Shown in pieces: positions 2,342 through 63,810 of a stretch of 64,000 bases of DNA (positions are counted from its first letter, which is position 1; each line of letters starts with the position of its first letter). Below the pieces are notes generated by a model, which had not been told where the DNA came from, made no database searches, and saw only the letters and a list, made by a program, of their open reading frames with translations. This DNA is from Oscillospiraceae bacterium (GTDB taxonomy: Bacteria; Bacillota; Clostridia; Christensenellales; Aristaeellaceae): contig JAISZG010000027.1 in the NCBI GenBank assembly GCA_031269355.1, positions 566-64,565 of the forward strand, read 5' to 3'. A program made the position numbers and the translations under genes.

Positions 2342-2483
2342 TCGCCATCGATCGTTTCCCTCCTGATTCTGCCATGCGTACAATGCTTGCCAGCGCGCGG
2401 AACGAAGTCCCGCTTCGTTCGGGGGCGCCGGGGGCGGTGCCCCAGTCTAAGTTGTTATAACCTCTCAATATTATAAATAGAGT

Positions 2484-9431: not shown

Positions 9432-9469
9432 AAAAGGGCTGCCGCGCGTTTGTGGCAGCCCTTTTTCTT
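9432..9469. terminator. Rho-independent terminator, possibly bidirectional
   Basis: GGGCTGCC (9435-9442) pairs with GGCAGCCC (9453-9460). Flanked by an A-run upstream and TTTTTCTTT downstream. Confidence 0.8.
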
Positions 9470-9504
9470 TAGACGGGGGTTCTTCCCCCGACCACCGAGC
9501 GAGA

Positions 9505-9536
9505 GCGGGGCTTGTTGCCGCGCCCCGTACCCGCCG
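9505..9536 (-). repeat. Copy D of the recurrent GC-rich element (box + hairpin), directly after the stop of the solute-binding gene
   Basis: Minus-sense GGCGGGTACGGGGCGCGGCAACAAGCCCCGC, with a CGGGGC/GCCCCG hairpin. Confidence 0.55.
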
Positions 9537-9538
9537 CC

Positions 9539-13099: not shown

Positions 13100-13153
13100 A
13101 CGCTTCCCCTCCTTGGATGGGGACTCTGCCCCGACGCTCCCCGTAACATCGCG

Positions 13154-18347: not shown

Positions 18348-18591
18348 AGTCATACGGACGAGTATGTTCAAGTCCGATTATAAGCTCGCGAAAAAACGCG
18401 GAAAAGACATGCGCAGGATTAATGAGGCCATTCGCATTCTAGCATATGGCGATCAGCTTGACGCGTCATACAAGGCGCATCCGCTGAAAGGCGGTTATGC
18501 CGGGTACATTGAATGCCATATTCAGCCTGACTGGCTTATGATATACAGAATTCGGGATACTACGTGGACGTCGTATACGTCGACCAGCTGA
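18337..18591 (+). CDS. YafQ/RelE-family type II toxin with an atypical C-terminus (possibly truncated or inactive)
   Basis: FKSDYKLAKKRGKDM...HPLKGGYAGYIECHIQPDWLMIY matches YafQ. The expected C-terminal RTGSHSDLF-like segment is replaced by RIRDTTWTSYTSTS. Confidence 0.75.
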   Translation: MKYEVIRTSMFKSDYKLAKKRGKDMRRINEAIRILAYGDQLDASYKAHPLKGGYAGYIECHIQPDWLMIYRIRDTTWTSYTSTS

Positions 18592-18880: not shown

Positions 18881-19205
18881 TACACGACGACGGGAGCGAC
18901 AAAAATCGCTTCCGTTATTATTGTCGGTAATGTTTGCACCATAGTCAATAAGGTAGCCACAAAAATACGTGACGCGCGGGCAAAACATTGCCGGAGCCAG
19001 GGGCCGCGTCCCCCTCTATACCTATGGTGAGCGCTATAGCCCCCGCCGCGCAGCAGCGAGAGCCGTCGGCTTACGCTTTCAAAAGACGAGACGGCATATC
19101 TCGAAGAACTGTACAGGCCGCATAATGTCGCGGGAGCGTTGATCAAATAGGATTATATTAATAAGGTTTATGCATTCATAAGGCAAACAAGCCTTGGACG
19201 CAATA

Positions 19206-19257
19206 GCGGAGCGCGCGCCGACCCGAATTAAATGGGGCCGCGCGCCATACCCGCCAA
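19206..19257 (-). repeat. Copy A of the recurrent GC-rich element, overlapping the stop codon of the 325-aa ORF
   Basis: Minus-sense GGCGGGTATGGCGCGCGGCCCCATTTAATTCGGGTCGGCGCGCGCTCCGC. Confidence 0.6.
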
Positions 19258-20205
19258 GAAGGATCCCCCGAATCCCCGGATATTCAACATCTCCTCAAAT
19301 ATTCCCTTTGCCGAAGCGTCAAGCGCGTCAACATGAAGTATCACCGACTTGGCGTTAAGCATCAACCCTCTGTCGTCTACATACTTCTCCCGCGATACCT
19401 GCAGCTTCTTGCTCGCGCGATACCATATAAACGTGTTCTGCCCCGATTCCACCATATAGGGCAAATCCTTCTCCCACCATGGCGCGGATGTCTCCCGATG
19501 CCGCGCGCGGTCAGAACGCCTAACGCGCCTTCTTTCCCCTTCCACAGGCGGCGGCGCGCCGTCTATCGCCTCCATTATCCCCACCAGCACCGGAATAACC
19601 CGCTCCGTCAGCAGCCGCGCGCTAACCTCCACCGAGGCGGTCTCAAGCACAAGCCCCTCCGCGTCCTGCGCGGTCGTTTCCGATATAACAAGCAGCCCCT
19701 GCGCCCGGCTCCACTGAAGCGTGTTATACATATTCGATATCACAAGCGGCTCGCTTGCGCCAAGAATCCTTACGCGCCGCGCGTACGGCGAGTGAATATT
19801 CGGCGCGCGCTTCTTCGAACCGCCGCGCAACCGCTCGGGCTTGCGGCTAGCGCCCGCGCCGGTTAAAGAGAAGCGCGGCCTGCGAAGCTCCGGTATCGAA
19901 CGAGCGGGCGCGTCGGATGGCGCGTCTGCGCGGTCGTCGGACTGCTCGTAATCAAAATCATATTCCTGAGAATACGCCGGTTCGTCGGGATCATCCTCGC
20001 CCTCTAAAGGATGGAAATCCGGTACAAGCGTATGCCACCATCTCAAAAGCCTGTCATGCATTTTTTCGCCGGGCACGGGCATATCCTCCGCGCCTTCCTC
20101 CGGCTCGAAGTCGTCGGGCGACAGCCAGCTTTTGACCGCGCGCAGGCCGCTTGACGCGTGCCGGCGCAGCGCGTCGGTGAATTTCCGTTTATCATCGTCA
20201 GGCAT
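19228..20205 (-). CDS. Hypothetical 325-aa protein (acidic disordered N-half, basic linker, globular C-half)
   Basis: Long ORF with a host-like GC-rich third-position pattern, 99 nt downstream of the topoisomerase A gene. I recognise no motif. Confidence 0.6.
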   Translation of the reverse strand: MPDDDKRKFTDALRRHASSGLRAVKSWLSPDDFEPEEGAEDMPVPGEKMHDRLLRWWHTLVPDFHPLEGEDDPDEPAYSQEYDFDYEQSDDRADAPSDAPARSIPELRRPRFSLTGAGASRKPERLRGGSKKRAPNIHSPYARRVRILGASEPLVISNMYNTLQWSRAQGLLVISETTAQDAEGLVLETASVEVSARLLTERVIPVLVGIMEAIDGAPPPVEGERRRVRRSDRARHRETSAPWWEKDLPYMVESGQNTFIWYRASKKLQVSREKYVDDRGLMLNAKSVILHVDALDASAKGIFEEMLNIRGFGGSFLAGMARGPI

Positions 20206-22794: not shown

Positions 22795-22847
22795 ATCAAC
22801 TCGTCTCCATCAACAGTTTAAACGGCGGCTGAGGCGTGATAATCTTC

Positions 22848-24803: not shown

Positions 24804-24949
24804 CAAGTTCCTCTATTTATATATTTTGGGTTTTGTATGGATTTATATGTATGCATATGATATATATTCTATTCGTGGTTGAATTGTACAATATTTTTTG
24901 GGATTGGTCAAATGGAGAGCGAAATCATTTACTCTCATATAGCGGTATG

Positions 24950-33449: not shown

Positions 33450-34587
33450 TATTTCCGAGAATAACCTGGCCGCGCGCGCCGGTCGCGCCCGGAACGTTGC
33501 CAGGCCTGCCATGCATCGTCTCATAGCCCAGCATCGCGAAGGCAACCGCCTCCTTCGCGTCGGAATTATATTTAGACGATCCCGCGCCCCGCGCCCGCGC
33601 CAAATCTTCCTGCGTCAATATTTCGCATTCGGGAAGCGCGCGGGCTATTTCTCGCCGCATCGTCTCGTTATGAGCGCCTCCGCCGGAGAGTATCACCTCT
33701 TTTACACGGCAGCGCGGGAATACGTACATGCGATAGTTAAGCTCGATAGCCGCCGCCGTGTAGCGCGTCGCCGTCGCCAGCCAATCCTCGGGGCGTATAT
33801 CCGGACGCGCTGCCAGCGCGGACTCCACGAACTGCGCGCCGTATAATTCGCGTCCTGTCGCCTTTGGCGGCGGCGCGGAGACGTACGGAATAGCCATCCA
33901 CTCTGCCAGCAGAGCTTCGTCGACCGCGCCTGTCGCCGCGATTTTGCCGCCGTCGTCGAACTCCACACCGAAAAAGCGCTTTGCGAGCGCGTCGATTATC
34001 ATGTTCGCCGGGCCGGTGTCAAACGCGAAAACATCGGATAGCTCGGCGTTCTCCTTCAATACGGTTACATTGCCTATGCCGCCGAGGTTTTGAAGCGCGC
34101 GCGGAGTCTCGCCGCGGTACAGCAGATATTCGGCATACGGCACCAATGGCGCGCCGCGCCCTCCCGCCGCCATATCCATCGCGCGCATACTCGATACCAC
34201 CGGAATTCCCGTTTGATAGGCGATCACCGACGGCTCGCCAAGCTGAAGCGTCGAGGCGAGAAATTCGCCTTCGTCCTCCGGAATATGGTATACCGTCTGC
34301 CCGTGCGAGCCTATGCAGGCAACATGCGCGGGAGCGATCCCCGCTTGCTCGCAAACAGCCATGGCCGCCTTGGCAAACCAATATCCTATCTCGACGTTTA
34401 CGCTGCATATAAGCCGAACGTTCGAGCGCGCAATATCGCAGCAATCGAGTATTTTCGCTCGCAGCGACTCAGGCATGGGCACAGTTATAAACGCCGCAAG
34501 CCGTACTTCTTTCCCGTCGATCTCTATCAGCGCGGCGTCGCACCCGTCTAGCGACGTGCCGCTTATCAGGCCGATTGCGTAATCCAT
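33424..34587 (-). CDS. anmK: Anhydro-N-acetylmuramic acid kinase
   Basis: N-terminal GLISGTSLDGCDAAL, about 385 aa. Convergent 26-nt overlap with murQ. ATG at 34587 lies 9 nt after GGAGA. Confidence 0.88.
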   Translation of the reverse strand: MDYAIGLISGTSLDGCDAALIEIDGKEVRLAAFITVPMPESLRAKILDCCDIARSNVRLICSVNVEIGYWFAKAAMAVCEQAGIAPAHVACIGSHGQTVYHIPEDEGEFLASTLQLGEPSVIAYQTGIPVVSSMRAMDMAAGGRGAPLVPYAEYLLYRGETPRALQNLGGIGNVTVLKENAELSDVFAFDTGPANMIIDALAKRFFGVEFDDGGKIAATGAVDEALLAEWMAIPYVSAPPPKATGRELYGAQFVESALAARPDIRPEDWLATATRYTAAAIELNYRMYVFPRCRVKEVILSGGGAHNETMRREIARALPECEILTQEDLARARGAGSSKYNSDAKEAVAFAMLGYETMHGRPGNVPGATGARGQVILGNITPAPYGG

Positions 34588-34627: not shown

Positions 34628-35599
34628 TTATTTATCGTATAGGTGGCACGCTACGACGTGCCCTTCCTCAGCCGTTACCGGTTCGGGGATTTTTTGCGAG
34701 CACAGCGGTTTCGCGCGGGCGCAGCGCGTATGAAACGGGCAGCCATCGGGCGGATTCGCAGGGTTCGGCACGTCGCCTTCTAGCGCTATATGGCGCTTTT
34801 TAAGCAGTGGATCGCGCGAGGGAACCGCCGACAGCAGCGCCTGGGTATATGGATGAAGCGGCCTATCGTATACCAACGCGGTGTTTCCCTGTTCCATAAT
34901 ACGGCCAAGGTACATAACGCATACGTTGGCGCTGATATGGCGAACTACATTCAGATCGTGCGATATAAAAATCATAGACAGGCGCATATCCCGCTGCAGC
35001 CGCATCAACAGGTTTAATATCTGAGCCTGAATAGATACGTCGAGCGCGGAAACCGGCTCGTCGGCGACGACGAATCGCGGGCGGCTGATCAACGCCCTGG
35101 CTATCGAAACGCGCTGCTTTTGACCGCCTGAAAATTGGTGCGGGTAGCGCGTCAATTGATCGGGCGTCATACCCACAAGCTCCAGCATCTCATCTACCTG
35201 CTCTCGCGTTTGAGCTTCGGATAGGTTGAAATGCACTCGCAGCGGTTCGGAAAGCAGCGCGCGCACGTTCATGCGCGGGTTAAGGGAGCCGTACGGGTTT
35301 TGAAATATGAACTGCATGTCGCGTCTTTTCACGCGCATTTCCTCCGGAGTCAGCGCGCGTATGTCCGCGCCGTCAAATACGATGTTTCCGCCCGTCGGCT
35401 CGATCAACCGCAGTATGCTCGATCCTGCGGTGCTCTTGCCGCATCCGCTTTCGCCCACGATCGCCAATACCTCGCGGTCGTTCACATCAAAGCTTATATC
35501 CTCCACGGCGTGAACATATCCGACAGTCTTGCGCAATAGGCCAGATTTTATAGGGAAATAAGTTTTTAAATTCCGTACGGAAAGCAGCGGCTCGCTCAT
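34628..35599 (-). CDS. Oligopeptide/dipeptide ABC transporter ATP-binding protein (OppF-like)
   Basis: Walker A GESGCGKST, signature FSGGQKQR and Walker B VVADEP. ATGA overlap with the OppD-like gene. Confidence 0.88.
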   Translation of the reverse strand: MSEPLLSVRNLKTYFPIKSGLLRKTVGYVHAVEDISFDVNDREVLAIVGESGCGKSTAGSSILRLIEPTGGNIVFDGADIRALTPEEMRVKRRDMQFIFQNPYGSLNPRMNVRALLSEPLRVHFNLSEAQTREQVDEMLELVGMTPDQLTRYPHQFSGGQKQRVSIARALISRPRFVVADEPVSALDVSIQAQILNLLMRLQRDMRLSMIFISHDLNVVRHISANVCVMYLGRIMEQGNTALVYDRPLHPYTQALLSAVPSRDPLLKKRHIALEGDVPNPANPPDGCPFHTRCARAKPLCSQKIPEPVTAEEGHVVACHLYDK

Positions 35600-36642
35600 C
35601 GCGCCTCCACCTCCTCGCCGGTACGAAAGCAGCGGCACAGGTGGCCGGGGGCTATCTCGCAGAGCGCTGGCAAAGCTTCGGCGCAGCGCGGCGCGGCGCG
35701 GTCGCACCGATCGCGGAATCGGCAGCCGCTCGACCATTCGCCGCCCGGCGGCACCATCCCGGGAATAGTATACAGTTCATTTTGGTGCGGGGCTTCCGCC
35801 TCTGATTGGCTGGTACTGCGCCCCATATCCGCGCGATCGCCGTCCAGCGACGTCACAGCGCGCAGCAAGCCCTCCGTATATGGGTGGGCGGTATTATGAA
35901 ACAGCTCGGCTGCGGGCGCCTGCTCTACCACCTGCCCGGCATAGAACACCGCCACTTCCTCGCAGGTTTCCGCGATAACGCCCAAATCGTGCGTAATCAT
36001 AATTATCGACGTGCCGTTGGCGGCCTTCAAGCCGTTCATCAGCTCGAGTATTTGTGCCTGTATCGTAACGTCGAGCGCTGTCGTAGGTTCGTCCGCTATC
36101 AGCAGCCGCGGATTGTTCAGCATAGCCATCGCGATCATCACGCGCTGCAGCTGCCCCCCTGAGATCAGGTGCGGGTAACTGCGCAGCGTTTGCTCCGGCC
36201 TTGGGATTTTGACGCTGCGCAGCATTTCAAGCGCGCGCTCGTGCATCTCCCGCTTGCCTATCCTTTTGTTATGAAATGATAGAGCTTCGAACATTTGATA
36301 CTCCACCGTGAATATGGGATCGAGCGACGTCATCGGCTCCTGGAATATCATCGCGATTTCTCGACCGCGCAGGCCGCGAATCTCTTCGGCGGGCAGCGAC
36401 AGCAATTCCTTCTCGCCGTTCAGGCTTTGATAGCGCGCCGTGCCGTCGGACACGCGAAGCGGATATGGCAGAAGCTGCATCAGCGCGTTCGCTGTGATGC
36501 TCTTGCCGCAGCCGCTCTCGCCAACAATTCCGAAACTCTGTCCTTTTTTTACCGACAGATCGACCTTATCCAGCAGCATCGCCTTGCCGCCGCCTCTTCG
36601 CGTTTCTATCCGAAGGCCGCAGATATCAAGCAGATGATCCAT
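35596..36642 (-). CDS. Oligopeptide/dipeptide ABC transporter ATP-binding protein (OppD-like)
   Basis: Walker A GESGCGKS, signature ISGGQLQR and Walker B LIADEPTTALD. Confidence 0.88.
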   Translation of the reverse strand: MDHLLDICGLRIETRRGGGKAMLLDKVDLSVKKGQSFGIVGESGCGKSITANALMQLLPYPLRVSDGTARYQSLNGEKELLSLPAEEIRGLRGREIAMIFQEPMTSLDPIFTVEYQMFEALSFHNKRIGKREMHERALEMLRSVKIPRPEQTLRSYPHLISGGQLQRVMIAMAMLNNPRLLIADEPTTALDVTIQAQILELMNGLKAANGTSIIMITHDLGVIAETCEEVAVFYAGQVVEQAPAAELFHNTAHPYTEGLLRAVTSLDGDRADMGRSTSQSEAEAPHQNELYTIPGMVPPGGEWSSGCRFRDRCDRAAPRCAEALPALCEIAPGHLCRCFRTGEEVEAR

Positions 36643-40147: not shown

Positions 40148-40176
40148 ACTGTAACACAATCGGACAATATTTTCAA
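40148..40176 (-). promoter_or_regulatory. Sigma-A-type promoter candidate for the peptide-transporter operon
   Basis: Minus-sense TTGAAA (40176-40171), 17-nt spacer, TACAGT (40153-40148). Confidence 0.5.
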
Positions 40177-40287
40177 CATTTTAAACGCGGCTTTGCCACT
40201 GCCTCCCGAAATGAAACGCGGCTGATAGCGCGACGCGCGGCGTGCCCGACGCGCCGCGCGTTACAGTTATCAGCCTTATCAGCCTGA

Positions 40288-40839: not shown

Positions 40840-40849
40840 TTTCTCACTC

Positions 40850-40920
40850 CCATTTAAACGGGGGCATGCCCCCTACGCCAGCGAGCAAGGCGGGGAAGCG
40901 TCCGGCGCCATATCGCGCTT
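40850..40920 (-). repeat. Copy H of the recurrent GC-rich element in the 5' leader of the 183-aa gene
   Basis: Minus-sense GCGCGATATGGCGCCGGACGCTTCCCCGCC...GGGGGCATGCCCCCGTTTAAATGGGAGTGAG, then ATG. Confidence 0.5.
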
Positions 40921-41029
40921 GGCGGCGCGCATACGCGCGATATTTGGAAAACGGCGGAATACGCGCTGTTATAATATATGCGCGGCGGCAGGGTTGTGTG
41001 CAGAACACCGCACGGCGCGTTTTCGCAAG

Positions 41030-41130: not shown

Positions 41131-42228
41131 ATGAAATGCGGCGTCATCGGTTTACCCAACGTCGGCAAGTCAACGCTGTTTAACGCCATTACCCGCGCCG
41201 GAGCCGAAGCGGCTAACTATCCGTTTTGCACAATCGAACCGAACACGGGGGTCACGGCGGTGCCGGACGCGCGGCTCGCCGCGTTGACCGATATGTACCA
41301 TCCCAAAAAGACAACGCCCGCGCTGGTCGAGTTCGTAGATATCGCCGGATTGGTGAAGGGCGCGAGCAAGGGCGAGGGGCTGGGCAACAAGTTCCTTTCC
41401 CATATACGCGAGGTGGACGCGCTGGTGCACGTTGTGCGCTGCTTTGACGATTCCAACGTTCAGCACGTCGACGGACGGGTCGACCCCGTGCGGGACGCGG
41501 AGGTCGTCAACCTGGAGCTTATACTCGCCGATTTGGATACGGTGGAGCGAAGGGAAGACCGCGCGCGCAAATCCGTTAAAACCGGAGATAAAAAGACCGC
41601 TCTTGAGGCGGACACGGCGGCAAAGATCCGCGCCCATTTGGAGGGCGAACAGCCCGTGCGCACATGCGCGCTTACAAGCGAGGAGCGAGAGATCGCGCGC
41701 GGATGGTTCCTGCTTACAGACAAGCCGGTGCTGTACGCCGCGAACATAGGCGAGGATCAAATAGGGCTGCCGGAGGATACGCTGCCCGGCATACCGGAAC
41801 TTAAGGCGCTCGCCGCGAAGGAACGCGCCGAGACGCTGGTGATTTCCGCGAGGGTCGAGGCCGATATAGCTGCGATGGAACCGGAGGATAAGGCGCTGTT
41901 TCTGGAAGAACTGGGGATCGGCCAGCCCGGACTCGATAGATTCGCCAAGGCGAGCTATAAGCTGCTCGGGCTGATTTCGTTCCTGACTGCCGGAGCGGAC
42001 GAGGTGCGCGCGTGGACTATCCGCGAAGGGGATCGCGCGCCGCAGGCCGCCGGAAAGATTCACACCGATTTCGAGCGCGGATTTATACGCGCGGAAATCG
42101 TCGCGTTCGACGCGCTTATGCGCGAGGGCGGAATGGCGGCTTGCAAGGAGAAGGGACTTGTGCGCTCGGAGGGCAAGGATTATGTTATGAAGGACGGCGA
42201 CGTAGCGCTGTTCCGGTTCAACGTGTAG
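41131..42228 (+). CDS. ychF: Redox-regulated ribosome-binding ATPase YchF
   Basis: [19 protein letters not shown] and a C-terminal TGS-like end [11 protein letters not shown]; 365 aa. Confidence 0.95.
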
Positions 42229-42229
42229 C

Positions 42230-43624
42230 ATGCGAACATATCAAACGGCGGATACGATCGCCGCGATAGCGACGCCTCCCGGATCGGGCGGCATAGCGAT
42301 ACTGCGCGTCAGCGGATCGAACGCGGAGGCGATACTGCGCGCGATATTTCGGCGTCCGGGCGGCGAAACGGCGGCATCGTCCGATTGGGAAAGCCATCGT
42401 TTATACTATGGTTATGTTTATAATAGAGGCGAGACAATCGACGAAGCTATGGCCGTGCTGATGCGCTCGCCGCGCTCGTATACGCGCGAGGACGTCGCGG
42501 AATTGCACGTTCACGGCGGCGCGGAGACGGCGCGCCGCGCGCTTGAGGCCGCGCTGGCGCAAGGCGCGCGGGTCGCGGAGCCGGGCGAATTTACGCGCAG
42601 GGCGTTTGAATCCGGGAGAATTGATCTAGCGCAGGCGGAAGCGACTATGCGGCTGATAGGCGCGTCGGGAGAAGCGGCCGCCCGCTCGGCTCTGCGCGCG
42701 CTGGCTGGAGGTCCGTCGCGCTTTGTGAAGGACGCACAATCACGGCTTATCGAGCTGCTCGCGCGGCTGGGGGCGGCGATTGATTTTCCGGATGAAATAG
42801 AGGAGAGCGGCGTCTCACGAGAAATCGCCGCGCATATCGCGCTTTTGCGCCGCAGCCTGGAGAGGGAGTGCGATCCGCGAGCCGGGCGCGTGCTGGATGA
42901 GGGGCTGGATATAGCGATCGTCGGCGCGCCAAACGCGGGCAAGTCGTCGCTGCTGAACGCGCTGCTGAACGAGGAGCGTGCGATTGTGCATGCGTCTCCG
43001 GGAACCACGCGCGACGTGCTGACCGCGAGGCTCGATATTTCGGGGCTTCGCGTCAACCTGTCCGATACGGCGGGGCTTCGCGAAACGAGCGATCCCGTCG
43101 AGATGATCGGAGTGACGCGCGCGAAGGCGCGAATGGATCGAGCCGACCTTACGCTGCTGGTGATAGACGCGTCGGAACCGTTCTCGGTAGATATTCAATG
43201 CGCGGCGGCTTCGCTGCCGGTAGGGCGGCGGGCGGTGATACTCAACAAATCCGACCTGCCCGCTCGGATTAATCCGCAGGAAATCGCGGCTCTCGCTCCG
43301 GACGCGGCATGCCTGTCCGTCAGCGCGGCTACGGGCGACGGTTTGGAGAGGGTGCGCGAATTGATCGCCAAGTTCGCGCGCGCGCTTCCGCTGGAATCGG
43401 CCTCGCTTACCGGAGCGCGCCATGTGGAAGCCGCGCGGCGCGCGGCGGCTTCGCTTGCCGAAGCGGAGGCATGCCTGCTGGATTCCTCGATGGGCGGCGC
43501 GGCGATCGATCTGGCGACCGTCGACCTGAACGCGGCGCTGCGCGCGCTGTGCGAGATCACCGGCGAAACGGCGGACGAGGCGGTAATCGACGCGGTGTTC
43601 GCGAACTTTTGCGTAGGCAAATAA
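42230..43624 (+). CDS. mnmE: tRNA modification GTPase MnmE
   Basis: DTIAAIATPPGSGGIAILRVSG, G-domain GAPNAGKSSLLNAL and the C-terminal CVGK motif. Confidence 0.95.
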   Translation: MRTYQTADTIAAIATPPGSGGIAILRVSGSNAEAILRAIFRRPGGETAASSDWESHRLYYGYVYNRGETIDEAMAVLMRSPRSYTREDVAELHVHGGAETARRALEAALAQGARVAEPGEFTRRAFESGRIDLAQAEATMRLIGASGEAAARSALRALAGGPSRFVKDAQSRLIELLARLGAAIDFPDEIEESGVSREIAAHIALLRRSLERECDPRAGRVLDEGLDIAIVGAPNAGKSSLLNALLNEERAIVHASPGTTRDVLTARLDISGLRVNLSDTAGLRETSDPVEMIGVTRAKARMDRADLTLLVIDASEPFSVDIQCAAASLPVGRRAVILNKSDLPARINPQEIAALAPDAACLSVSAATGDGLERVRELIAKFARALPLESASLTGARHVEAARRAAASLAEAEACLLDSSMGGAAIDLATVDLNAALRALCEITGETADEAVIDAVFANFCVGK

Positions 43625-43687
43625 TATGCATGTCCCGCCGTCTGCGGAATATGATAATACGACGTCGAGAACATACAACCGACACGC

Positions 43688-43743
43688 TGCGGATATGGGT
43701 CGCGGCTCCGTTCCGCCAGGGCGGCGAGGCGCGAAACTCCGCT
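43688..43743 (+). repeat. Copy F of the recurrent GC-rich element in the leader of the nitroreductase gene
   Basis: TGCGGATATGGGTCGCGGCTCCGTTCCGCCAGGGCGGCGAGGCGCGAAACTCCGC, then AAAAGGAGG and ATG. Confidence 0.55.
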
Positions 43744-43767
43744 ATAACTCTAAAAGGAGGCAAATCG

Positions 43768-44346
43768 ATGCAAACCACAGTGCAGTCAAGTTTCCATACT
43801 CCCGCCCAGGAGACCAGCTCTTTTCTGGATTTATGCGCCAGGCGGCAGAGCTGCCGCTCGTTCTCCGATCAGCCGATCGACCATAATACGCTCGTTGCCG
43901 TTGCGGAAGCCGCGCGGCTTGCGCCATCCGCGTGCAACAGCCAGCCGTGGTCGTTCGTGCTGGTTGAATCGCCTGAAAAAGTTGCGGAAGCGGCCAGGTG
44001 CGGGCAGGCGATGGGCATCAACGGATTCCTGAACGACGCGAAGGCGATACTTCTTATACTGGAGCAGCCCGCGCGCTTGATGCCGCAGATCGGCGGGCTG
44101 CTTGACAGCCAGTACTTCGCGGCGGGGGATATCGGCGGCGCGGCGCTTGCCGCGTGCCTCGCGGCCGAGGATCATGGCGTGGGCAGCTGCATAATAGGCC
44201 TATTCGACCGTCCCAAGCTGCGCGAGCTGCTCGACCTGCCGGATTGGCAGCCTATCGCGTATTATATCGCGCTTGGATATCCCAAGAATCCGGTCGTTCG
44301 CCCCAAAGCCCGCAAGGCTCTGGCGGAATTGGTGAAGTTCGTTTAA
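43768..44346 (+). CDS. Nitroreductase-family protein
   Basis: LCARRQSCRSFSDQPI...APSACNSQPW motif. AAGGAGG lies 7 nt upstream. The track ORF from 43309 overlaps mnmE and is rejected. Confidence 0.85.
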   Translation: MQTTVQSSFHTPAQETSSFLDLCARRQSCRSFSDQPIDHNTLVAVAEAARLAPSACNSQPWSFVLVESPEKVAEAARCGQAMGINGFLNDAKAILLILEQPARLMPQIGGLLDSQYFAAGDIGGAALAACLAAEDHGVGSCIIGLFDRPKLRELLDLPDWQPIAYYIALGYPKNPVVRPKARKALAELVKFV

Positions 44347-44363
44347 CAGATACCACTGTTTAT

Positions 44364-44399
44364 ACACGCCGACGCAATCGCGCCATTGCGTCGGCGTGT
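44364..44399 (+). terminator. 15-bp perfect hairpin after the nitroreductase gene
   Basis: ACACGCCGACGCAAT-cgcgcc-ATTGCGTCGGCGTGT with a weak U-tract. A second small hairpin with a T8 run lies at 44442-44461. Confidence 0.6.
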
Positions 44400-44477
44400 T
44401 CGTATCGCCATAGGCAGTATTGAGCATTTTGAATTTTCCAGAAACGCGCAGCGTTTTTTTTCGATTTTTTCCATTTA

Positions 44478-44680
44478 GGGCGTGTTCGAAAAATATCTCG
44501 AGGCTGAATGTGCTGGATTTTGATGAGGCGCAAGGAGCCATGAGGGAGGCGTAGTGGAGCTACGTCGACTGCGCGTAAACCCACCGCCGCCTGTGGCGGA
44601 TGAAGGCGGGTTGGAGCGCGCGACGCCGCGATGGATAAAAAGACAGTGCATTCAGACCGAGAGATTTTTCGAACACGCCC
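44478..44680 (+). ncRNA. Candidate structured RNA with a very long closing stem (6S-like architecture) or a MITE-like inverted-repeat element
   Basis: Arm 44478-44515 pairs with 44644-44680 (17 bp, one mismatch, 5 bp, small internal loop, 12 bp). Two G-U wobbles are valid only in the plus-strand RNA. The GC-rich interior holds several local hairpins. No credible ORF. Confidence 0.4.
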
Positions 44681-44828
44681 AAAATTTGTCAACTATATCG
44701 GCCAATTTTAGCAACATTGCGCGAAAATATTTACGCTTTTATGAATAACAAACGGTTGATATATCATAGAGTTCCTCGGAAGGTGCGAATAGGCAAATTC
44801 GCCCCCATTCGCTTGAGGAGGGATCGTC

Positions 44829-45320
44829 ATGCTGTTGACTATCACAATGTTCAAGAAAAACATCAAACAGTATCTGGCGCAGGCGACGCAGGAGGATCTG
44901 TACTTAATCAAGTACGGCAAGTGCGTCGCCAAGCTAACGAGCTGTAAGGAAGCGCCGCCCGCGCAAACCCTGGCGGTCGCCGCGCCGCCGAAGAAAAAAG
45001 CGGAGGTAAAGCCTAAGAAAAAGAAGGAACCTAAAGCCGAAAAACCCACGCCTCAAACCGCAGCCGAGATAAAACCCAAACCTGAGAAAAAGAAAAAGGA
45101 ATCGGTCAAATCAGCAAAACCCGCAGCTGCAGTAAAACCGGCGAAGGAGCCGAAAGCAAAGCCCGTTTCCGAAACGGGGTCGAAAGCAAAAGCGAAGAAG
45201 ACGCCGTTGAAACCAAAGCCCGTCGAAACAAAGGCGCCTGAAGAAAAATCCGACGGCAAGAAAACGGACGCAAAAACAACAGCAAAAAAAGAACCCAAAG
45301 CCACCAAAGCGAAAAAGTGA
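44829..45320 (+). CDS. Phd/YefM-like N-terminal domain fused to a histone-H1-like Lys/Pro/Ala-rich tail
   Basis: N-terminus TITMFKKNIKQYLAQATQEDLYLIKYGKCVAKLTS resembles Phd/YefM antitoxins. Residues 45-163 are KPK/AKK low-complexity repeats. GAGGAGG RBS. Confidence 0.7.
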   Translation: MLLTITMFKKNIKQYLAQATQEDLYLIKYGKCVAKLTSCKEAPPAQTLAVAAPPKKKAEVKPKKKKEPKAEKPTPQTAAEIKPKPEKKKKESVKSAKPAAAVKPAKEPKAKPVSETGSKAKAKKTPLKPKPVETKAPEEKSDGKKTDAKTTAKKEPKATKAKK

Positions 45321-45534
45321 TCGAATCCTCTGAAACAAAAGCGAAAGCGGCGGATGGGAATAACCGATAATCCCCACCGGCTGGGCGAAGCCCACGCAAA
45401 TTTGAATGAAGCAAAATCGGTGGAAATAAATCCGGTCAATGGGCGGCTGACCAATACTCTGTCCGCAACTTGACCGGATTTTATTAATTAAAATCCAACC
45501 GAGCGGGAATTCCACATGAACCGCGCGCCGAGAA

Positions 45535-45563
45535 TTGCGCCGCGAATGCCGCTATGTTAGAAT
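45535..45563 (+). promoter_or_regulatory. Sigma-A-type promoter abutting the mnmG start codon (possible leaderless transcript)
   Basis: TTGCGC (45535-45540), 17-nt spacer, TGT-TAGAAT (45558-45563). The ATG at 45571 lies 7 nt after the -10, and there is no SD. Confidence 0.45.
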
Positions 45564-45570
45564 ATCGCAT

Positions 45571-47463
45571 ATGGAAAAGCATTCGCCGACGGACGTTGTG
45601 GTAATAGGCGCGGGGCACGCGGGGTGCGAAGCGGCGCTCGCCTGCGCGCGCATGGGTATGCGGACTCTCCTTATCACGCTGCACCTGGACGCGGTCGCGC
45701 TGATGCCCTGCAATCCCGCCGTCGGCGGCACGGGCAAGGGACATCTCGTGCGCGAGGTGGACGCGCTGGGCGGCGAGATGGGTCGCTGCATCGACGCCGT
45801 AACTATTCAATCGCGAATGTTAAACCGCTCGAAGGGTCCGGCGGTGCACAGCCTTCGCGCGCAGGCGGACAAGCGCGCGTATCATGAGCGCATGCTGCAA
45901 ACGCTGCTAGGCGAACCAAACCTGACGCTGCGCCAGGGAGAAGTTGGGCGGATCGCCACGGCAAACGGCAAAATCTCCGGTGTAGTCACGCTGACCGGAC
46001 AGGCCGTCGATTGCCGGGCGGTCGTGGTCGCGGCGGGCGTATATCTAAACGGCAGAATAATCATCGGCGAATACGCGCGCGATGGCGGACCTTCGGGGCT
46101 TACATGCGCCTCCGCGCTGTCCGGCGCGCTGTTCGATCTGGGATTTACACTGCGCAGATTTAAAACCGGAACGCCCGCGCGGCTGGATGGCAAAACGATC
46201 CGCTTCGACAGAATGGAGCCGCAGCCGGGCGACGAGCCAGTCACGCCGTTTTCGTTTTTAACGGACGTTCCGCCGGAAAACCTAGCGATGTGCTATCTGA
46301 CCTGGACGAACGAGCGCACGCATTCCATAATCCGCGCGAATCTGAGCCGCGCGCCGATGTATCAAGGGACGATTCACGGAACAGGCGCGCGCTACTGCCC
46401 GTCGATCGAGGATAAAATAGTTCGCTTCGCGGATAAAGCGCGGCATCAGGTATTCATTGAGCCGGAAGGGCTGCGCTCGCCGGAATGGTATGTGCAGGGC
46501 GTATCTACATCTCTGCCGGAGGATGTGCAGATAGACCTGATCCATTCCATCGCCGGGCTGGAGGACGCGAACCTTCTTCGGCTGGCGTACGCGATCGAGT
46601 ACGATTGCATCGATCCAACCCGGCTGGACGCGTCTATGGCGGCGCATGACGTGCCTGGACTGTTCCTTGCCGGTCAGATAAACGGAACATCCGGATATGA
46701 GGAGGCGGCCGCGCAGGGAACGCTCGCGGGAATCAACGCCGCGCTGTACCTGCGGGGCGACGCGCCGTTTACGATCGCGCGGGATGAGGGATATATAGGC
46801 GTGCTCGCGGACGACCTCACTGTCAAAGGCACGGACGAGCCTTATCGCATGATGACCTCGCGTGCGGAATACCGGCTTTTGCTGCGCCAGGATAACGCCG
46901 ATCTGCGATTGACGGAGCGCGCGCACGCGATCGGGCTGGCCGGAGAGGAACGGCTTGCCCGCGCGATCGACAAAAAAGAACAAACTGCGCGAACGCTCGA
47001 GCTGCTTCGATCCTCGCGCGTTCCTCCGGACGCGCGGCTCGGCTCGTGGCTGGAAGAGATTGGGCAGCCGCAGGTTCAATCGGGAATATCGCTGCTTGAG
47101 CTAATTCGCAGACCCGGCGTCGATTACGCCGCGCTTCGCGTGCTGCGGCCGGAGCTTCCGGAACTCGCGCCGTCCGTCGAGCGGCAGGTTTGCCTGACCG
47201 CAAGGTACGAGGGATATCTCGAAAAGCAGCGGCGCGAGGCGGTTAAGTTTCGCGCGCTGGAGGCGAGACCCATTCCCGTGGATATTGATTACGGCGCGCT
47301 GCCTGGCTTGCGCATCGAGGCGCGGCAGAAGCTGTCCGCCGTTCGCCCATCGTCGCTCGGCCAGGCGTCCAGGATACCCGGAGTGTCGCCTGCGGACGCG
47401 GCGGTGCTGTCGGCGCATATATCCAGGACGCGGCGCGCGGCACCCGTTCGACAGGAGGAATAA
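45571..47463 (+). CDS. mnmG: tRNA uridine 5-carboxymethylaminomethyl modification enzyme MnmG (GidA)
   Basis: VVVIGAGHAGCEAALA FAD motif, PCNPAVGG and about 630 aa. Confidence 0.95.
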   Translation: MEKHSPTDVVVIGAGHAGCEAALACARMGMRTLLITLHLDAVALMPCNPAVGGTGKGHLVREVDALGGEMGRCIDAVTIQSRMLNRSKGPAVHSLRAQADKRAYHERMLQTLLGEPNLTLRQGEVGRIATANGKISGVVTLTGQAVDCRAVVVAAGVYLNGRIIIGEYARDGGPSGLTCASALSGALFDLGFTLRRFKTGTPARLDGKTIRFDRMEPQPGDEPVTPFSFLTDVPPENLAMCYLTWTNERTHSIIRANLSRAPMYQGTIHGTGARYCPSIEDKIVRFADKARHQVFIEPEGLRSPEWYVQGVSTSLPEDVQIDLIHSIAGLEDANLLRLAYAIEYDCIDPTRLDASMAAHDVPGLFLAGQINGTSGYEEAAAQGTLAGINAALYLRGDAPFTIARDEGYIGVLADDLTVKGTDEPYRMMTSRAEYRLLLRQDNADLRLTERAHAIGLAGEERLARAIDKKEQTARTLELLRSSRVPPDARLGSWLEEIGQPQVQSGISLLELIRRPGVDYAALRVLRPELPELAPSVERQVCLTARYEGYLEKQRREAVKFRALEARPIPVDIDYGALPGLRIEARQKLSAVRPSSLGQASRIPGVSPADAAVLSAHISRTRRAAPVRQEE

Positions 47464-48558: not shown

Positions 48559-51210
48559 ATGGATATTGACGATAGATCCCGCGAGAGATCCGAATTGTGC
48601 GTTTGCATCGACGGCAACAGTCTGATGTACCGCGCGTTTTTCGCGCTTCCCGAGCTGACGGACCGCCATGGGAATCCAGTAAACGCGGTGTTTGGATTTT
48701 TGATGATGCTGCTAAAGCTGGTGGCCGAGCGGCGGCCGGATTATCTCGTGGTGGCGTTCGACGTGCACGGACCTACGCGGCGGCATATTCAGTACGACGA
48801 GTATAAGGCGCACCGCCCGCCGACGCCAGAAACGCTGCGCCCGCAGTTCACGCTGATAAAGGAGCTGCTCGCCAAGATGGGCGTCGCCATACTGACGAGC
48901 GTTGGCTGGGAAGCGGACGATCTGCTTGGAACCGTCGGCGGCGCGTGCGAGGCCCGGGGGATAAACGCGCTGCTTGTGACCGGCGACAGGGACGCGTTTC
49001 AGCTGATCACACAGCGGACGCACGTGCTGTTTACGAAGCGCGGGGTGAGCGAAACGGTGGAGTACGATCCAGTTTCGCTAGCCGAGGAATACGGAGTATC
49101 GCCCGATCAGATACCGGATCTGAAAGGGCTGACGGGCGACAAATCCGACAATATACCCGGCGTGCCGGGCGTCGGCGACAAAACCGCCGTCAAACTTCTA
49201 AACGAATATAAAACGCTGCTCAACGCGCTGGCGCACGCGCACGAGCAAAAGGGCAAGCTCCGCGAGCGGCTGGAGACATACGCCGATCAGGCGCGGATGA
49301 GCTTGAGCCTGGCGACGATCGACCGCGACGCGCCGGTTGATATCGATTGGCCGAAACTGCGAATGCCTACACTCGCAAGCGCGAGACCGCTTTTCGAACG
49401 ACACGGCTTCACATCGCTTATCGCGAGGCTCGACGCTATAATATTAGACGGCGGTTCCCGCGCCGACGCCGCCGAATATGGCGAAGCGCCGCGCGAACTG
49501 TCGGCGGCGCGGCAGACTATCTACCTGTCGACGCCGGAGGAGCTGGAGGCGTTCGTCGCCGATCCACCCGACCCCCCTCTCGCGCTTGTGTTTGGCGCGG
49601 GTGCGGTGCGCGGTTCCGTTTCAGGAGCGACGGGGATAGAGCCTCCGCTTCAGGAAGAATTGACGTTCGCCGACGCGAGCCGCATATGGCGCGCGCCGCT
49701 CGCCGTCGATTTGATCGCGCAGGGAATACGCCCCGACATGGCGCAGGACGCGATACTGCCGCTCCTTCGCAATCCGGAAGGGTTAATATTGTACGACGCG
49801 AAGCCATATTTGTCGCTGATCCAGGCGCGGCCAGGTGCGCGGGCGGGCGGAGACGCGCGGATAGCCGCGTATCTGATCGACGCGCTGAGCAAGTCGAGCG
49901 GGCTGTCCGATCTGATGGGCGAGGGCGAGCGAGCGGACGCCGCCGCATTGTACGACCTAAACGAGCGGCAGCGCGCGTCGATCGCCGATATGGGCGCGAC
50001 GCGCCTATATGAGGAGATAGAGCTTCCGCTTACTGGCGTGCTTGCCGATATGGAGCGCGAGGGGTTCCTGATCGACCCCGACGAACTGCGCGATATCGGA
50101 GCGCGGCTGGACGAGCGGGAGGCGTCGCTGCGGGGCGATATATTCCGTCGGCTGAACGTAGCGCCGTTCAATCTGAACAGCCCGAAGCAGCTGGGAAAGG
50201 CGTTGTTTGAAGATCTTGGACTGCCGACCGGGCGCAAGACAAAATCCGGATATTCGACGGACGCGGATACGCTGGAATCGCTCGCCGACCGATACCCCGT
50301 AGTCGCGGGCATATTGGACTGGCGGCACGTGGTAAAGCTGAAAGGCACGTATATCGACGGATTATTATCGAAGCTGGACTCCAACAGCCGCGTGCACAGC
50401 ACGTTCTTTCAAACCGCTGCGGTTACGGGCCGCATTTCCTCAAACGAGCCGAACCTGCAAAATATCCCCACGCGCACCGCACAGGGACGGGAAATACGGC
50501 GCGCGTTTATCGCGCGTCCGGGATGGACGCTGGTAGACGCGGACTATTCGCAAATAGAGCTTCGAATACTCGCGCACCTCGCGGAGGATCCGTCGATGCT
50601 CGGCGCGTTCGAGCGGGGCGAGGATATTCACACGCGCATGGCGGCGGAGGTAAACGGCGTGGCGGTGGAACAGGTGACACCCGAGATGCGCTCAGCGGCG
50701 AAGGCGGTCAACTTTGGAATCGTATATGGTCAGAGCGATTACGGGCTGGCTAGAACGATCGGCGTGACGCGCGCGGAGGCCGGCGATATGATCGCCCGGT
50801 ATTTCGCCAGATATCCGAGCATTAAACGATATTTGGATGAATCGGTGGCGCAAGGCAAAGCAAACGGATACGCGCGCACACTTCTGGGCAGGCGCAGGCC
50901 GCTGCCGGAGCTGGCGTCCGCGAATCGCTCGATCCGCATGTTTGGCGAGCGCGCCGCTATGAACACGCCCGTGCAGGGTTCGGCGGCGGATATAATAAAG
51001 CTGGCGATGGTGCGCGTGGCGAAGGAGCTGACCGATATGTCGGCTCGGCTGATCCTTCAGGTGCACGACGAGCTGATAGTCGAGTGCCCGATTGAGGAAG
51101 CGGAAAAGGTCGCCGCGATATTGCGGGAGCAGATGCAAGGCGCGGCGGAGCTGCGCGTCCCGCTGCTGGTGGATATAGGCGTCGGCAGAACATGGTACGA
51201 TTGCAAGTAA
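48559..51210 (+). CDS. polA: DNA polymerase I
   Basis: 5'-nuclease domain (GDKSDNIPGVPGVGDKTA), polymerase motifs DYSQIELR and QVHDEL; 883 aa. Confidence 0.95.
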   Translation: MDIDDRSRERSELCVCIDGNSLMYRAFFALPELTDRHGNPVNAVFGFLMMLLKLVAERRPDYLVVAFDVHGPTRRHIQYDEYKAHRPPTPETLRPQFTLIKELLAKMGVAILTSVGWEADDLLGTVGGACEARGINALLVTGDRDAFQLITQRTHVLFTKRGVSETVEYDPVSLAEEYGVSPDQIPDLKGLTGDKSDNIPGVPGVGDKTAVKLLNEYKTLLNALAHAHEQKGKLRERLETYADQARMSLSLATIDRDAPVDIDWPKLRMPTLASARPLFERHGFTSLIARLDAIILDGGSRADAAEYGEAPRELSAARQTIYLSTPEELEAFVADPPDPPLALVFGAGAVRGSVSGATGIEPPLQEELTFADASRIWRAPLAVDLIAQGIRPDMAQDAILPLLRNPEGLILYDAKPYLSLIQARPGARAGGDARIAAYLIDALSKSSGLSDLMGEGERADAAALYDLNERQRASIADMGATRLYEEIELPLTGVLADMEREGFLIDPDELRDIGARLDEREASLRGDIFRRLNVAPFNLNSPKQLGKALFEDLGLPTGRKTKSGYSTDADTLESLADRYPVVAGILDWRHVVKLKGTYIDGLLSKLDSNSRVHSTFFQTAAVTGRISSNEPNLQNIPTRTAQGREIRRAFIARPGWTLVDADYSQIELRILAHLAEDPSMLGAFERGEDIHTRMAAEVNGVAVEQVTPEMRSAAKAVNFGIVYGQSDYGLARTIGVTRAEAGDMIARYFARYPSIKRYLDESVAQGKANGYARTLLGRRRPLPELASANRSIRMFGERAAMNTPVQGSAADIIKLAMVRVAKELTDMSARLILQVHDELIVECPIEEAEKVAAILREQMQGAAELRVPLLVDIGVGRTWYDCK

Positions 51211-51218
51211 GGCGAACT

Positions 51219-52391
51219 CTAGTCCGCGCCGACCGTAACGCTCGCCGCGCCGCGCTTGGCCATGCGTATATGAACGTCAACCGCCGTGTCCGTCTCTCCG
51301 ACCTCGATCGCCGCGTCGATGCCGGTGCGGCGCATTTGATCCGTCAGATCGCGCATCGCGTTGACGTACGGCCTATGATCCCGCACTACGCCCGTAACCC
51401 TGCGGCGGGTGGCGGGAGCTTCGCGCAGTATCGATTCGACGAGCGATTCCGCATCCCGAAGCGTCAGCTGGTTCTCGAAAATTTTTCGAGCGACGGATTG
51501 CTGTTTGGATTCCTCCGTAAGCTTCAGCAGCACGCGCGCGTACCGCTCCGATATGTCAAGCTCGCGGATAAGCTTGCGCGTCGGCTCGGGTATGCGCAGC
51601 AAGCGCAGCTTGGCGGATAGCGCGTTCGCGCTGATGCCTATCAGTCCGCTCATTTCCTGAACCGATAGCCCGCTCTTTCTTAGTATCGCGTCGAGTGTTT
51701 CAGCTTCCTCGATATAGTGCGAAGGTTCGCGCTGAAGGTTTTCCACAATGCCCAGCAGATCGCTGTCGATTTCACCGGCGGGCAGCACTATCGCGTCTAT
51801 ATGGGTCATGCCCAGCTTTTCGCACGCGCGAAGCCGACGCGCGCCCGCGATTAGCTCGAACCTTCCCGAAACGGTCAGCCGCACCGTGATAGGCTGCAAT
51901 AGGCCAAGCTCGCGAATGGACGCCGCCAGCTCGTCTAGCCTGCGCTCGTCTATAGCGCCGCGCAGCTTGCCGGTCGCCTCTCCGATAAGGCGAATCGGAA
52001 GCCAGCGCACCTGGCGCCGCGCCGCGCTTTCCGCCTCCGGCGGTTCCGAGAACGCTCTTTGCGGTTTGTCTGCGGCGATCTCCCGCTCATGTGCCGCCAA
52101 GGAGCGGCCGGCCTGCTCGCTCGCGCGAAAATGTCGAAGCGCCGTCACGAATCGCATCCCTCGCTGTTCGTTTTTTATTAGTTCCCGCATCGGCTTATAT
52201 GTCGGATCGTACATCGGCTCGTATATCGCCGTATAGAACGCGTTTCGATATCCGGGCGGGAACTCCTTCAAACGGGCGCTGAGAATCGTTCGCCTCGGTT
52301 CGCCTTGATTTGATGCGATTTTCCGCGCGGGCGCGAAGAAGCGCGCAGCGAATCGGTTTTCATCGAACCTAATCGGGCGAATCTGCGGCAT
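51219..52391 (-). CDS. ParB/Spo0J/Noc-family protein with an unusual about 130-aa N-terminal extension (start uncertain)
   Basis: ParB N-domain LLQPITV...ELIAGARRLRA plus an HTH region. No adjacent parA. No good SD at 52391. Confidence 0.75.
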   Translation of the reverse strand: MPQIRPIRFDENRFAARFFAPARKIASNQGEPRRTILSARLKEFPPGYRNAFYTAIYEPMYDPTYKPMRELIKNEQRGMRFVTALRHFRASEQAGRSLAAHEREIAADKPQRAFSEPPEAESAARRQVRWLPIRLIGEATGKLRGAIDERRLDELAASIRELGLLQPITVRLTVSGRFELIAGARRLRACEKLGMTHIDAIVLPAGEIDSDLLGIVENLQREPSHYIEEAETLDAILRKSGLSVQEMSGLIGISANALSAKLRLLRIPEPTRKLIRELDISERYARVLLKLTEESKQQSVARKIFENQLTLRDAESLVESILREAPATRRRVTGVVRDHRPYVNAMRDLTDQMRRTGIDAAIEVGETDTAVDVHIRMAKRGAASVTVGAD

Positions 52392-52556: not shown

Positions 52557-53073
52557 CGGCGGAATCGATCGGCGGAAGCGAACGGATCATCCTGCGCAGT
52601 CCCGCGTCGATAAGCTTGCGCAGCTGCGCCCCGCACGCGCTGTATTCAGCCGCGCCGCCGCAATATGGATCGCATACGTCGCCGTCCTGATCGGCGGCCC
52701 AGGCGCTGATAGTCATTACGCGCGCGCGCGGCGCTATTCTGCGCGCGACGGCGGCCTGCGCGCGGGTCATAGTAAGCACAAGCGCGCCCTCCGCCTGCTC
52801 GGCGGCAAACCTGCGCGTCTTGTGATCGTCCAGCGATAACCCCGCCACGCGAACCGCTCCGCACGCGCCGTCGGACGCCGGAGCGCCTATCGGCGCGGAA
52901 ATTCCTGCGGACGATATCCGCCATCGCGCCAGGCAGCTCGGGCAGTTGCGCTTTAGCCAGTCGCGCGCGAACGCTTCCGCCATAGGGCTGCGGCAGGTAT
53001 TGCCCGTGCATACGAACACAATCGAATACAGCGGCGGCAGCTCGTTTGCGGGGACGCGCCTAAACTGAGTCAT
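52516..53073 (-). CDS. Low-molecular-weight protein-tyrosine phosphatase / ArsC-like phosphatase
   Basis: P-loop VCTGNTCRSPMAE and DPY general-acid motif. ATGA overlap with the upstream GuaA-like gene. Confidence 0.85.
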   Translation of the reverse strand: MTQFRRVPANELPPLYSIVFVCTGNTCRSPMAEAFARDWLKRNCPSCLARWRISSAGISAPIGAPASDGACGAVRVAGLSLDDHKTRRFAAEQAEGALVLTMTRAQAAVARRIAPRARVMTISAWAADQDGDVCDPYCGGAAEYSACGAQLRKLIDAGLRRMIRSLPPIDSAVNESQTSRSEPAP

Positions 53074-54476: not shown

Positions 54477-54497
54477 ACTGAACGGCTCCTCCCTTTA

Positions 54498-54558
54498 GCG
54501 CGGGGTTTCACACCCCGCCGCCCCGCGAATTAAATGGGGCTGCGCCACATACCCGCCG
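54498..54558 (-). repeat. Copy B of the recurrent GC-rich element in the 5' leader of the GuaA-like gene
   Basis: Minus-sense GGCGGGTATGTGGCGCAGCCCCATTTAATTCGCGGGGCGGCGGGGTGTGAAACCCCGC, then AAAGGGAGGAG and ATG. Confidence 0.6.
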
Positions 54559-54672
54559 ACGTAACGAACGGCGTTTGCGGCGCACGGACTAAAATTTATA
54601 TGCGAGCGCCTTTTATTATAAGACAGGCGATGACGAGCACGCCAACCTGCGGCGTCTTCCGCAGCCGCTTGC

Positions 54673-60747: not shown

Positions 60748-60764
60748 TATGCTTCATCCTTCCG

Positions 60765-60845
60765 ATAAACGGGACGCCAGCCCCGACGCCCCAACGCAGG
60801 GGCGGCATTCTGCCGTCCGGAGCCGCACCCCGCACCCGCCTGCTG
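60765..60845 (-). repeat. Copy E (variant) of the recurrent GC-rich element in the leader of the 490-aa membrane-protein gene
   Basis: Minus-sense GGCGGGTGCGGGGTGCGGCTCCGGACGGCAGAATGCCGCCCCTGCGTTGGGGCGTCGGGGCTGGCGTCCCG, then GGAAGGA and ATG. Confidence 0.5.
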
Positions 60846-63731: not shown

Positions 63732-63749
63732 GGTCTGATCCTTCCTGCA

Positions 63750-63810
63750 GCGCGGAGTTCTGCCCCGCCGCCCCGAATTGAATGAACCTGCACCCCATAC
63801 CCGCTCCGTT
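63750..63810 (-). repeat. Copy C of the recurrent GC-rich element in the 5' leader of the M32 carboxypeptidase gene
   Basis: Minus-sense AGCGGGTATGGGGTGCAGGTTCATTCAATTCGGGGCGGCGGGGCAGAACTCCGCGC, then GCAGGAAGGA and ATG. Confidence 0.6.

Follow-up and report, generated by a model that had tools for sequence, protein, structure and literature searches.

What kind of element occupies the spacer between a GH127 gene and a GuaA-like gene, where positions 54,498 to 54,558 of the DNA shown above were flagged, and what do its likenesses elsewhere in the same DNA mean? The window, that is, the whole 64,000-nt stretch that was analysed, has a GC content of 57% and ribosome-binding sites of the Firmicute type. 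An earlier note had quoted seven GC-rich boxes from it, every one of which I found at its position and on its strand, and had left the choice between a cis-acting RNA, a REP-like repeat family and a protein-binding DNA site. As I will argue in this article, the second of these options is supported and the other two are not: the element is probably a lineage-specific family of small hairpin-forming dispersed repeats, REP- or RPE-like, carried by an uncultured Oscillospiraceae MAG (LBS72_), with 11 copies of 50-85 nt and ~67% GC counted in the window (Table 1). By analogy it may be seen as a functional counterpart of the REP, BOX, bcr and Rickettsia-palindromic-element repeats without being a member of those families.

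The core of the box, GCGGRTRYGNNNNGCRG, has eight exact matches in the 64 kb against an expectation of 0.12 from dinucleotide-preserving shuffles; six of them are copies A, B, C, D, E and F, and the two that go beyond the earlier list are copies K and L. When an nhmmer profile was built from four copies, A, B, C and F were found at E values of 1e-17 to 1e-19, but such values are circular (the copies being inside their own profile), and leave-one-out profiles were therefore made, which recovered A, B, C, D and F at E values of 6e-7 to 1e-3 and E, H, I and J weakly, at 0.07-2 (copy I, for one, reaches 1.2e-8 when in the profile and 0.07 by leave-one-out). These weak copies align with the rest over a 3' module, GGNGNCGGGG-loop-CCCCG-NYTAAAG, and copies D and H have a long 3' half in common, CCCCGC-TCTCGCTCGGTGG-TCGGGGG-loop-CCCCCGTNTAAA. 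The "hairpin-only relative" that had been pointed out ahead of the permease ribosome-binding site is borne out as copy J, its 3' module being homologous to that of the others. The copies are shown to be homologous to each other and not convergent, with even a loop sequence, ATTTAATTCG, in common.

Table 1. Copies of the element in the window and the two exact core matches beyond the earlier list, in order of position (CM, covariance model).
Feature	Position	Strand	CM score (bits)	Description
Copy I (new)	2385..2455	+		between the stop of the collagen-repeat gene (491-2341) and a bidirectional terminator
Copy D	9462..9538	-	48.6	leave-one-out E 2.8e-5
Copy J	13105..13150	-		3' module only (E 4.6e-4), in the 54-nt amidohydrolase/permease spacer; abuts SD
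Copy A	19192..19258	-	55.5	decayed, 3' hairpin arm deleted
Copy L (new)	35785..35832	-	46.7	48-nt in-frame insertion in OppD-like ABC ATPase, encodes ADMGRSTSQSEAEAPH; exact box match
Exact core match (copy L)	35816-35832	-		
Copy H	40848..40921	-		5' box divergent; 3' half clearly homologous to copy D; abuts SD of 183-aa gene; 3' module E 3e-4
Copy F	43685..43762	+	59	full element in the mnmE/nitroreductase spacer; abuts SD AAGGAGG
Copy K (new)	49597..49653	+	56.9	57-nt in-frame insertion in DNA polymerase I, encodes AGAVRGSVSGATGIEPPLQ
Exact core match (copy K)	49597-49613	+		
Copy B (flagged)	54488..54560	-	65	full element in the 196-nt GH127/GuaA-like spacer; 3' end abuts SD GGGAGG of the GuaA-like gene
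Copy E	60758..60843	-	42.9	longer variant with an extra apical hairpin; abuts SD of DUF975 gene; leave-one-out weak
Copy C	63745..63808	-	62	full element abutting SD of M32 carboxypeptidase gene

The best conserved part of the element is the 17-nt 5' box, and its bounds, as given by the junctions in the PolA gene discussed below, are a start at GCGGR and an end at CYCCGC-N-YTNNAG, after which follows a purine-rich tract. One covariance-model match, at 52594-52640 (-) within an LMWPc phosphatase gene (24 bits, E ~0.002), was rejected as a false positive, since the peptide encoded there, SACGAQLRKLIDAGLRR, is conserved in orthologs and contains no insertion; it marks the noise level of this GC-rich model. 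Two marginal profile matches (E 0.09-0.8) could be very degraded copies: the one at 33571-33600 (-), within the anmK gene, has a box-like GCGGGCGCGGGGCGCGG followed by CGTCTAAAT, and the one at 40173-40224 (-) lies in the spacer ahead of an SBP_bac_5 gene.

Now consider copies K and L, which lie inside genes. Every leave-one-out profile matched a site in the PolA gene, 49596-49660 (+), at E values of 2.5e-5 to 1e-3, and precisely at copy K the PolA of the window has 19 extra residues, AGAVRGSVSGATGIEPPLQ, relative to the 63%-identical PolA of relative L018, a segment that is found in none of 10 further PolA homologs from a 50%-identity representative library. Similarly, compared with M. tuberculosis Rv1281c (PDB 8j5q_D), the OppD-like protein has 16 residues more, ADMGRSTSQSEAEAPH, and this insertion of copy L breaks the Pfam oligo_HPY domain up into two parts. 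At 57 and 48 nt, the inserts each have a length divisible by three; they run sense to their host genes, and they share one reading frame with respect to the box, GCG-GRT-RYG-G.. The junctions, with slashes at the ends of the element, are TTTGGC/GCGGG...CTTCAG/GAAGAA in PolA and GATCGC/GCGGA...AAAAT/GAACTG in OppD, and at these two sites, for which the empty state can be reconstructed, there is no target-site duplication. As an aside on annotation, the OppD-like ORF overlaps the mechanically called OppF-like ORF by 142 nt (35596-35737, -), and the latter probably starts downstream of where it was called, close to its MSEPLL motif (residue 47 as called).

Looking beyond the window, the comparison set of relatives comprised ~104 kb from five genomes (L014-L021) with a GC content of 54-62%, and the closest other homolog of the GuaA-like protein (locus tag LBS72_03610) is 64% identical. 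In these ~104 kb no member was found with nhmmer profiles of 4, 7 or 11 copies, no match with a profile of the 3' module and none with covariance model R1 (best match E 1.6), and the box pattern gave a single match, within priA; P0139 and P0129 led to two other MAGs, which lack the element. P0124 can be assigned to the source MAG by the proximity of accessions (MDR1568880 versus MDR1569560). Orthologous sites can be compared directly: the GH127 to GuaA-like spacer, which has 196 nt with copy B in the window, measures 80, 12 and 34 nt without the element in L014, L016 and L018, the DUF975 leader that holds copy E in the window is AT-rich and without the element in L016, and the PolA of relatives lacks the 19-aa insert of copy K. 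When the element patterns were run against 185,579 representative genomes, JGI metagenome contigs and IMG/VR, all that came back was unrelated (coding sequence of purL and of phages, and chance matches in high-GC DNA), and from these comparisons the family appears to be restricted to one lineage. Within the species, copy B is present in a second strain as well (L010, 99.7% identity across 3.3 kb), where it differs by a single substitution, GCAGCCCC to GCAGCACC (L010 856-860, window ~54538), which falls in the proposed helix P2 and would break a G-C pair; as L010 has 10 substitutions in the 3.3 kb overall, this single change in copy B is not significant. No presence/absence polymorphism was seen within the species, the sole second strain also having copy B.

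The placement of the copies is far from even. Nine of the 11 are in the non-coding ~11% of the window (binomial p ~1e-7), and the called genes are separated by 31 spacers of 40 nt or more, 8 of which contain a copy, a tally that leaves out copy C, which is upstream of the last called gene. The earlier note had placed the box mostly in long 5' leaders, and about half of this stands: six copies of the 11 (B, C, E, F, H and J) are directly upstream of a ribosome-binding site, ending 0-1 nt before the SD with the start codon 7-12 nt beyond, but another three sit at gene 3' ends or past them, and the remaining two (K and L) are intragenic and in-frame. A promoter-like site at 63944-63916 ahead of copy C defines a leader of ~175 nt; an upstream promoter module, GGCGC..CGC.TATAA, common to B, C and E was not significant. 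That A and D sit at gene 3' ends, as had been noticed, is correct: D starts 4 nt past the stop codon of a solute-binding-protein gene and upstream of the terminator of that same gene, and A straddles a stop, overlapping the last codons and the stop of ORF 19228-20205, with no SD or start codon after it. Copy I, like D, lies between a stop and a terminator. All 11 copies are single. The genes downstream encode the GuaA-like ATP-pyrophosphatase, the M32 peptidase, the DUF975 protein, the nitroreductase, the 183-aa protein and the ABC permease, and the neighbours of the copies in general are unrelated housekeeping or catabolic genes. A transposase or RAYT-like gene was found nowhere among the ORFs of the 64-kb window.

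Several features beside the copies deserve a mention in their own right. The collagen-repeat gene next to copy I (491-2341, +) encodes a 616-aa protein with four stretches of Pfam collagen triple-helix repeats (E 1.7e-32). In the GntR/solute-binding-protein spacer, an AT-rich tract with a terminator hairpin at 9378-9489 (+) gives weak Rfam matches to L20_leader (E 0.33), rli56 and ctRNA_p42d, which look like terminator look-alikes and not true family members. A protein with a RelB antitoxin domain is encoded near the decayed copy A (17994-18347, +), and the small ORF adjoining it (18337-18591) may be its toxin partner. Upstream of copy B, at 54566-54612 (-), there is an extra segment, GTGCGCCGCAAACGCCGTTCGTTACGTCGGCGGGTATGTGGCGCA, that is predicted to pair with the 5' box, a pairing that would sequester the box of copy B in a long hairpin; such a segment is absent from the other copies.

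With regard to orientation, the claim that the box is always sense to the local gene holds for all 11 copies and the transcripts that carry them (two-sided p ~0.001). Replication strand was considered as the cause and rejected, since copy F (+) shares one side of the mnmE/mnmG region with copies B, C and E (-), and all four track the direction of their local genes. Genes of an origin-proximal style (gyrB, gyrA, ychF, mnmE, mnmG and ParB-like) are located at 20305-24806 (-), 41131-47463 (+) and 51219-52391 (-), and the sign of the GC skew switches at ~40-41 kb and again at ~51-52 kb, tracking gene strand and not a single replication switch. The tracts that follow the element 3' read AG/GAGG, AG/GAAGG or AG/GAAGA (slash at the end of the element) in six intergenic copies and at the PolA junction.

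Does the element fold in a manner that selection has kept? From four copies, RNAalifold proposes an imperfect helix P2 that is closed by a helix P1 (GCGGR/YCCGC). The MFE folds are heterogeneous between copies, with a GC-rich hairpin in every one: A and F fold into P1 plus P2 (a single long P1+P2 hairpin in F), D and H into a short P1 enclosing P2 and then a separate P3 hairpin, and in B and C the 3' strand of P1 is also claimed by hairpin P3 (GCGGGG-loop-CYCCGC). The 5' GCGGG and the 5' arm of P3 have the same CCCGC target, which makes the two helices mutually exclusive in B, C, D and E. Shuffle z-scores of the folds are modest (-0.4 to -2.3). The palindromic potential is real, since 86.5% of the cells of an eight-copy alignment are paired versus 44-57% in slid controls. 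The covariation score of 0.173 equals the shuffle mean of 0.172, with one double-sided change and one broken cell at the same pair (eight sequences from one genome, hence low power), and P3 scores 0.101 versus 0.137 for shuffles, with no double-sided change; in this small one-genome sample of little power there is no positive evidence for a selected fold. The compensatory change that the earlier note had seen in the closing helix (A-U in F versus G-C in B) lacks statistical support, being a single cell whose pair is broken in copy L, where GCGGA faces CCCGC. Its failure to place the box among the purine, ZTP, ykkC/PRPP, guanidine or fluoride riboswitches was well founded, for no copy has an Rfam match: nothing reached a gathering threshold, and the seven weak matches obtained at E<=10 all fall outside the copies.

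The reading that has to be weighed most carefully is that of a cis-regulatory RNA leader, whether riboswitch, protein- or sRNA-responsive leader or processing/stability element, recruited upstream of the genes of a regulon, in which the 5' GCGGR would either close P1 or leave the P3 hairpin to form and so control access to the adjoining SD. The sense orientation of all copies, the six that stop just short of an SD and start codon, the mutually exclusive P1 and P3 helices of B, C, D and E and a pairing potential well above slid controls are what one would hope to see of such a leader. I nevertheless consider it unlikely, given that covariation does not rise above shuffles and the one A-U/G-C swap is cancelled by L, that the predicted folds vary by copy with unremarkable z-scores, that the downstream genes are functionally unrelated, that five of the 11 copies are outside leaders (three at or beyond 3' ends, two in ORFs), that the element is absent ahead of the orthologous GuaA-like genes of L014, L016 and L018 and the DUF975 gene of L016, and that Rfam has no match for it. 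Leaders of the integron attC, ANTAR, RAT, PyrR or T-box style presumably do not fit either, the R'/R'' boxes being absent, the loops wrong and the context one of housekeeping genes. A G-quadruplex was suggested by the GGG-GGGG-GGGG-GGGG runs of C and E and was rejected, as F, A and D do not have four G runs.

A binding site at the DNA level, for a regulator, a nucleoid protein or an alternative sigma factor, would explain why conservation is highest in the 17-nt 5' box and why several copies are 30-55 nt downstream of -10-like hexamers, but it is very improbable: the copies are homologous over 50-85 nt, loops and 3' hairpin included, which is far more than a binding site, the box is without dyad symmetry, some copies follow stop codons or lie within ORFs, a common upstream promoter motif was not found, and orientation tracks transcription, which a symmetric operator would not need. 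It might finally be argued that we are looking at chance or compositional likeness among the GC-rich spacers of a genome of 57% GC, all the more so with one demonstrable false positive of the covariance model (LMWPc, 24 bits) and with E, H, I and J weak by leave-one-out. I give this next to no credence in view of the eight exact box matches versus 0.12 expected, the single match in 104 kb of relatives of equal GC, leave-one-out E values down to 6e-7 and two independent matches that coincide exactly with lineage-specific in-frame insertions; chance is effectively refuted for A, B, C, D, F, K and L and is possible for the weak members J, I and H alone.

What decides in favour of a dispersed inserted repeat, as opposed to a conserved regulatory RNA or an operator, is therefore the combination of a common loop sequence, a decaying copy, empty orthologous sites, frame-preserving insertions in two essential genes, unrelated neighbours, no covariation and apparent restriction to one lineage, and the element is most likely a selfish, REP-like DNA and not a riboswitch. 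The earlier note had reckoned that randomly oriented copies, or copies frequent in coding regions with no covariation, would reduce it to an ordinary REP, and much of this is what was found (two copies in-frame in ORFs, covariation at the level of shuffles), except that orientation is not random but sense throughout.

How might such a repeat behave? It may be, or have been, spread as a non-autonomous element by an enzyme acting in trans whose gene lies elsewhere in the genome, with copies surviving only where they are tolerated, in transcribed but untranslated spacers or at frame-preserving positions in protein loops. Taken at face value, 11 copies per 64 kb would extrapolate to a few hundred per genome, copy number and mobility alike being projected from one 64-kb window. 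The orientation bias and the placement 5' of the SD could arise from a strand- and target-specific insertion step, or from selection at the RNA level, for example if the C-rich antisense form or hairpins elsewhere were deleterious, or if sense hairpins stabilised the mRNA; sense G-rich hairpins may thus be harmless or mildly stabilising. Any effect on expression would then be a by-product of stable GC hairpins placed shortly before the ribosome-binding site and not a ligand-dependent regulation.

Comparison with known repeats helps to situate the family. Like the REP/BIME elements of Proteobacteria, which can affect mRNA stability (PMC3184786), the element is a short, GC-rich, imperfect palindrome that is lineage-specific in sequence and, as far as the 64-kb window goes, locally dense and mostly extragenic yet transcribed (intercistronic or in 3' UTRs) (PMC3184786). 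However, it is longer, with 2-3 hairpins, it occurs as single copies and not as the inverted doublets or clusters of REPINs and BIMEs, its copies all have one orientation to transcription, many are directly 5' of an SD and not after genes, two are intragenic, and the host is a Firmicute with no RAYT transposase in its 64-kb window. Small repeats are known to insert in-frame into ORFs (PMC10969869, PMC3184786), and the Rickettsia palindromic elements are likewise palindromic and found both in spacers and in-frame in unrelated housekeeping ORFs, with a common frame and related peptides (PMC10969869, PMC3184786), an analogy of behaviour only; in ORFs the present element has 48-57 nt versus ~100-150 nt for RPE, the host phylum is unrelated, and only two of the 11 copies are intragenic. 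Within the Firmicutes, the pneumococcal BOX, RUP and SPRITE repeats and bcr1-bcr18 of the Bacillus cereus group are transcribed in mRNAs, predicted to fold as RNA, sometimes fused to ORFs and lineage-restricted (PMC3184786), all of which applies here too, but the element has no modular boxA/B/C as in BOX, no terminal inverted repeats or target-site duplications as in RUP and bcr1 and no terminator-like U tract as in SPRITE, and it is GC-rich where Gram-positive small repeats are AT-rich.

With MITEs the element shares a small size, a lack of coding capacity, multiple copies, apparent insertion and short inverted termini (GCGGR ... YCCGC), but these termini have only 5 bp (versus ~10 bp or more), PolA and OppD show no target-site duplication, and no parent IS is known. 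Its likeness to riboswitches and structured leaders of Rfam goes as far as a position in the 5' UTR next to the SD and possible alternative helices, and ends at the lack of an Rfam match, of covariation, of retention at orthologous genes and of a coherent regulon, and at the copies in 3' UTRs and ORFs. No REP/RPE-like repeat family is known to have been described for Oscillospiraceae, and a search of the literature found none.

One aspect a neutral selfish-repeat model does not account for, namely the strict co-orientation and the abutment to SD-like purine tracts, the PolA junction included; co-orientation in 11 of 11 copies and SD abutment in six hint at a role at the RNA level. A bolder version of the dispersed-repeat reading, and one that I rate as rather unlikely, if anything slightly more doubtful than the regulatory leader, would make of the element an orientation-specific mobile leader module that inserts or is retained directly 5' of purine-rich SD-like tracts, co-directional with transcription, as a portable structured RNA whose P1/P3 alternatives tune mRNA stability or translation initiation of the gene behind it. 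Were this true, it would mean transcription- or RNA-coupled insertion, or a genome-wide RNA-level function of a selfish repeat in a Firmicute.

For annotators there is a warning here, since repeats of this kind mimic riboswitch-like leaders in being GC-rich and SD-adjacent and in having alternative helices, and can give rise to spurious RNA-motif calls in MAGs. If the preferred reading of a dispersed repeat is correct, it adds a REP/RPE-like repeat family to the Oscillospiraceae and provides a further case of small palindromic repeats written in-frame into essential proteins, here DNA polymerase I and the ATPase of an oligopeptide transporter. The family could also help to mark strains or lineages in termite-gut-type metagenomes, and its co-orientation and abutment to ribosome-binding sites, if confirmed genome-wide, would be informative on the mechanism of insertion or on selection at the RNA level.
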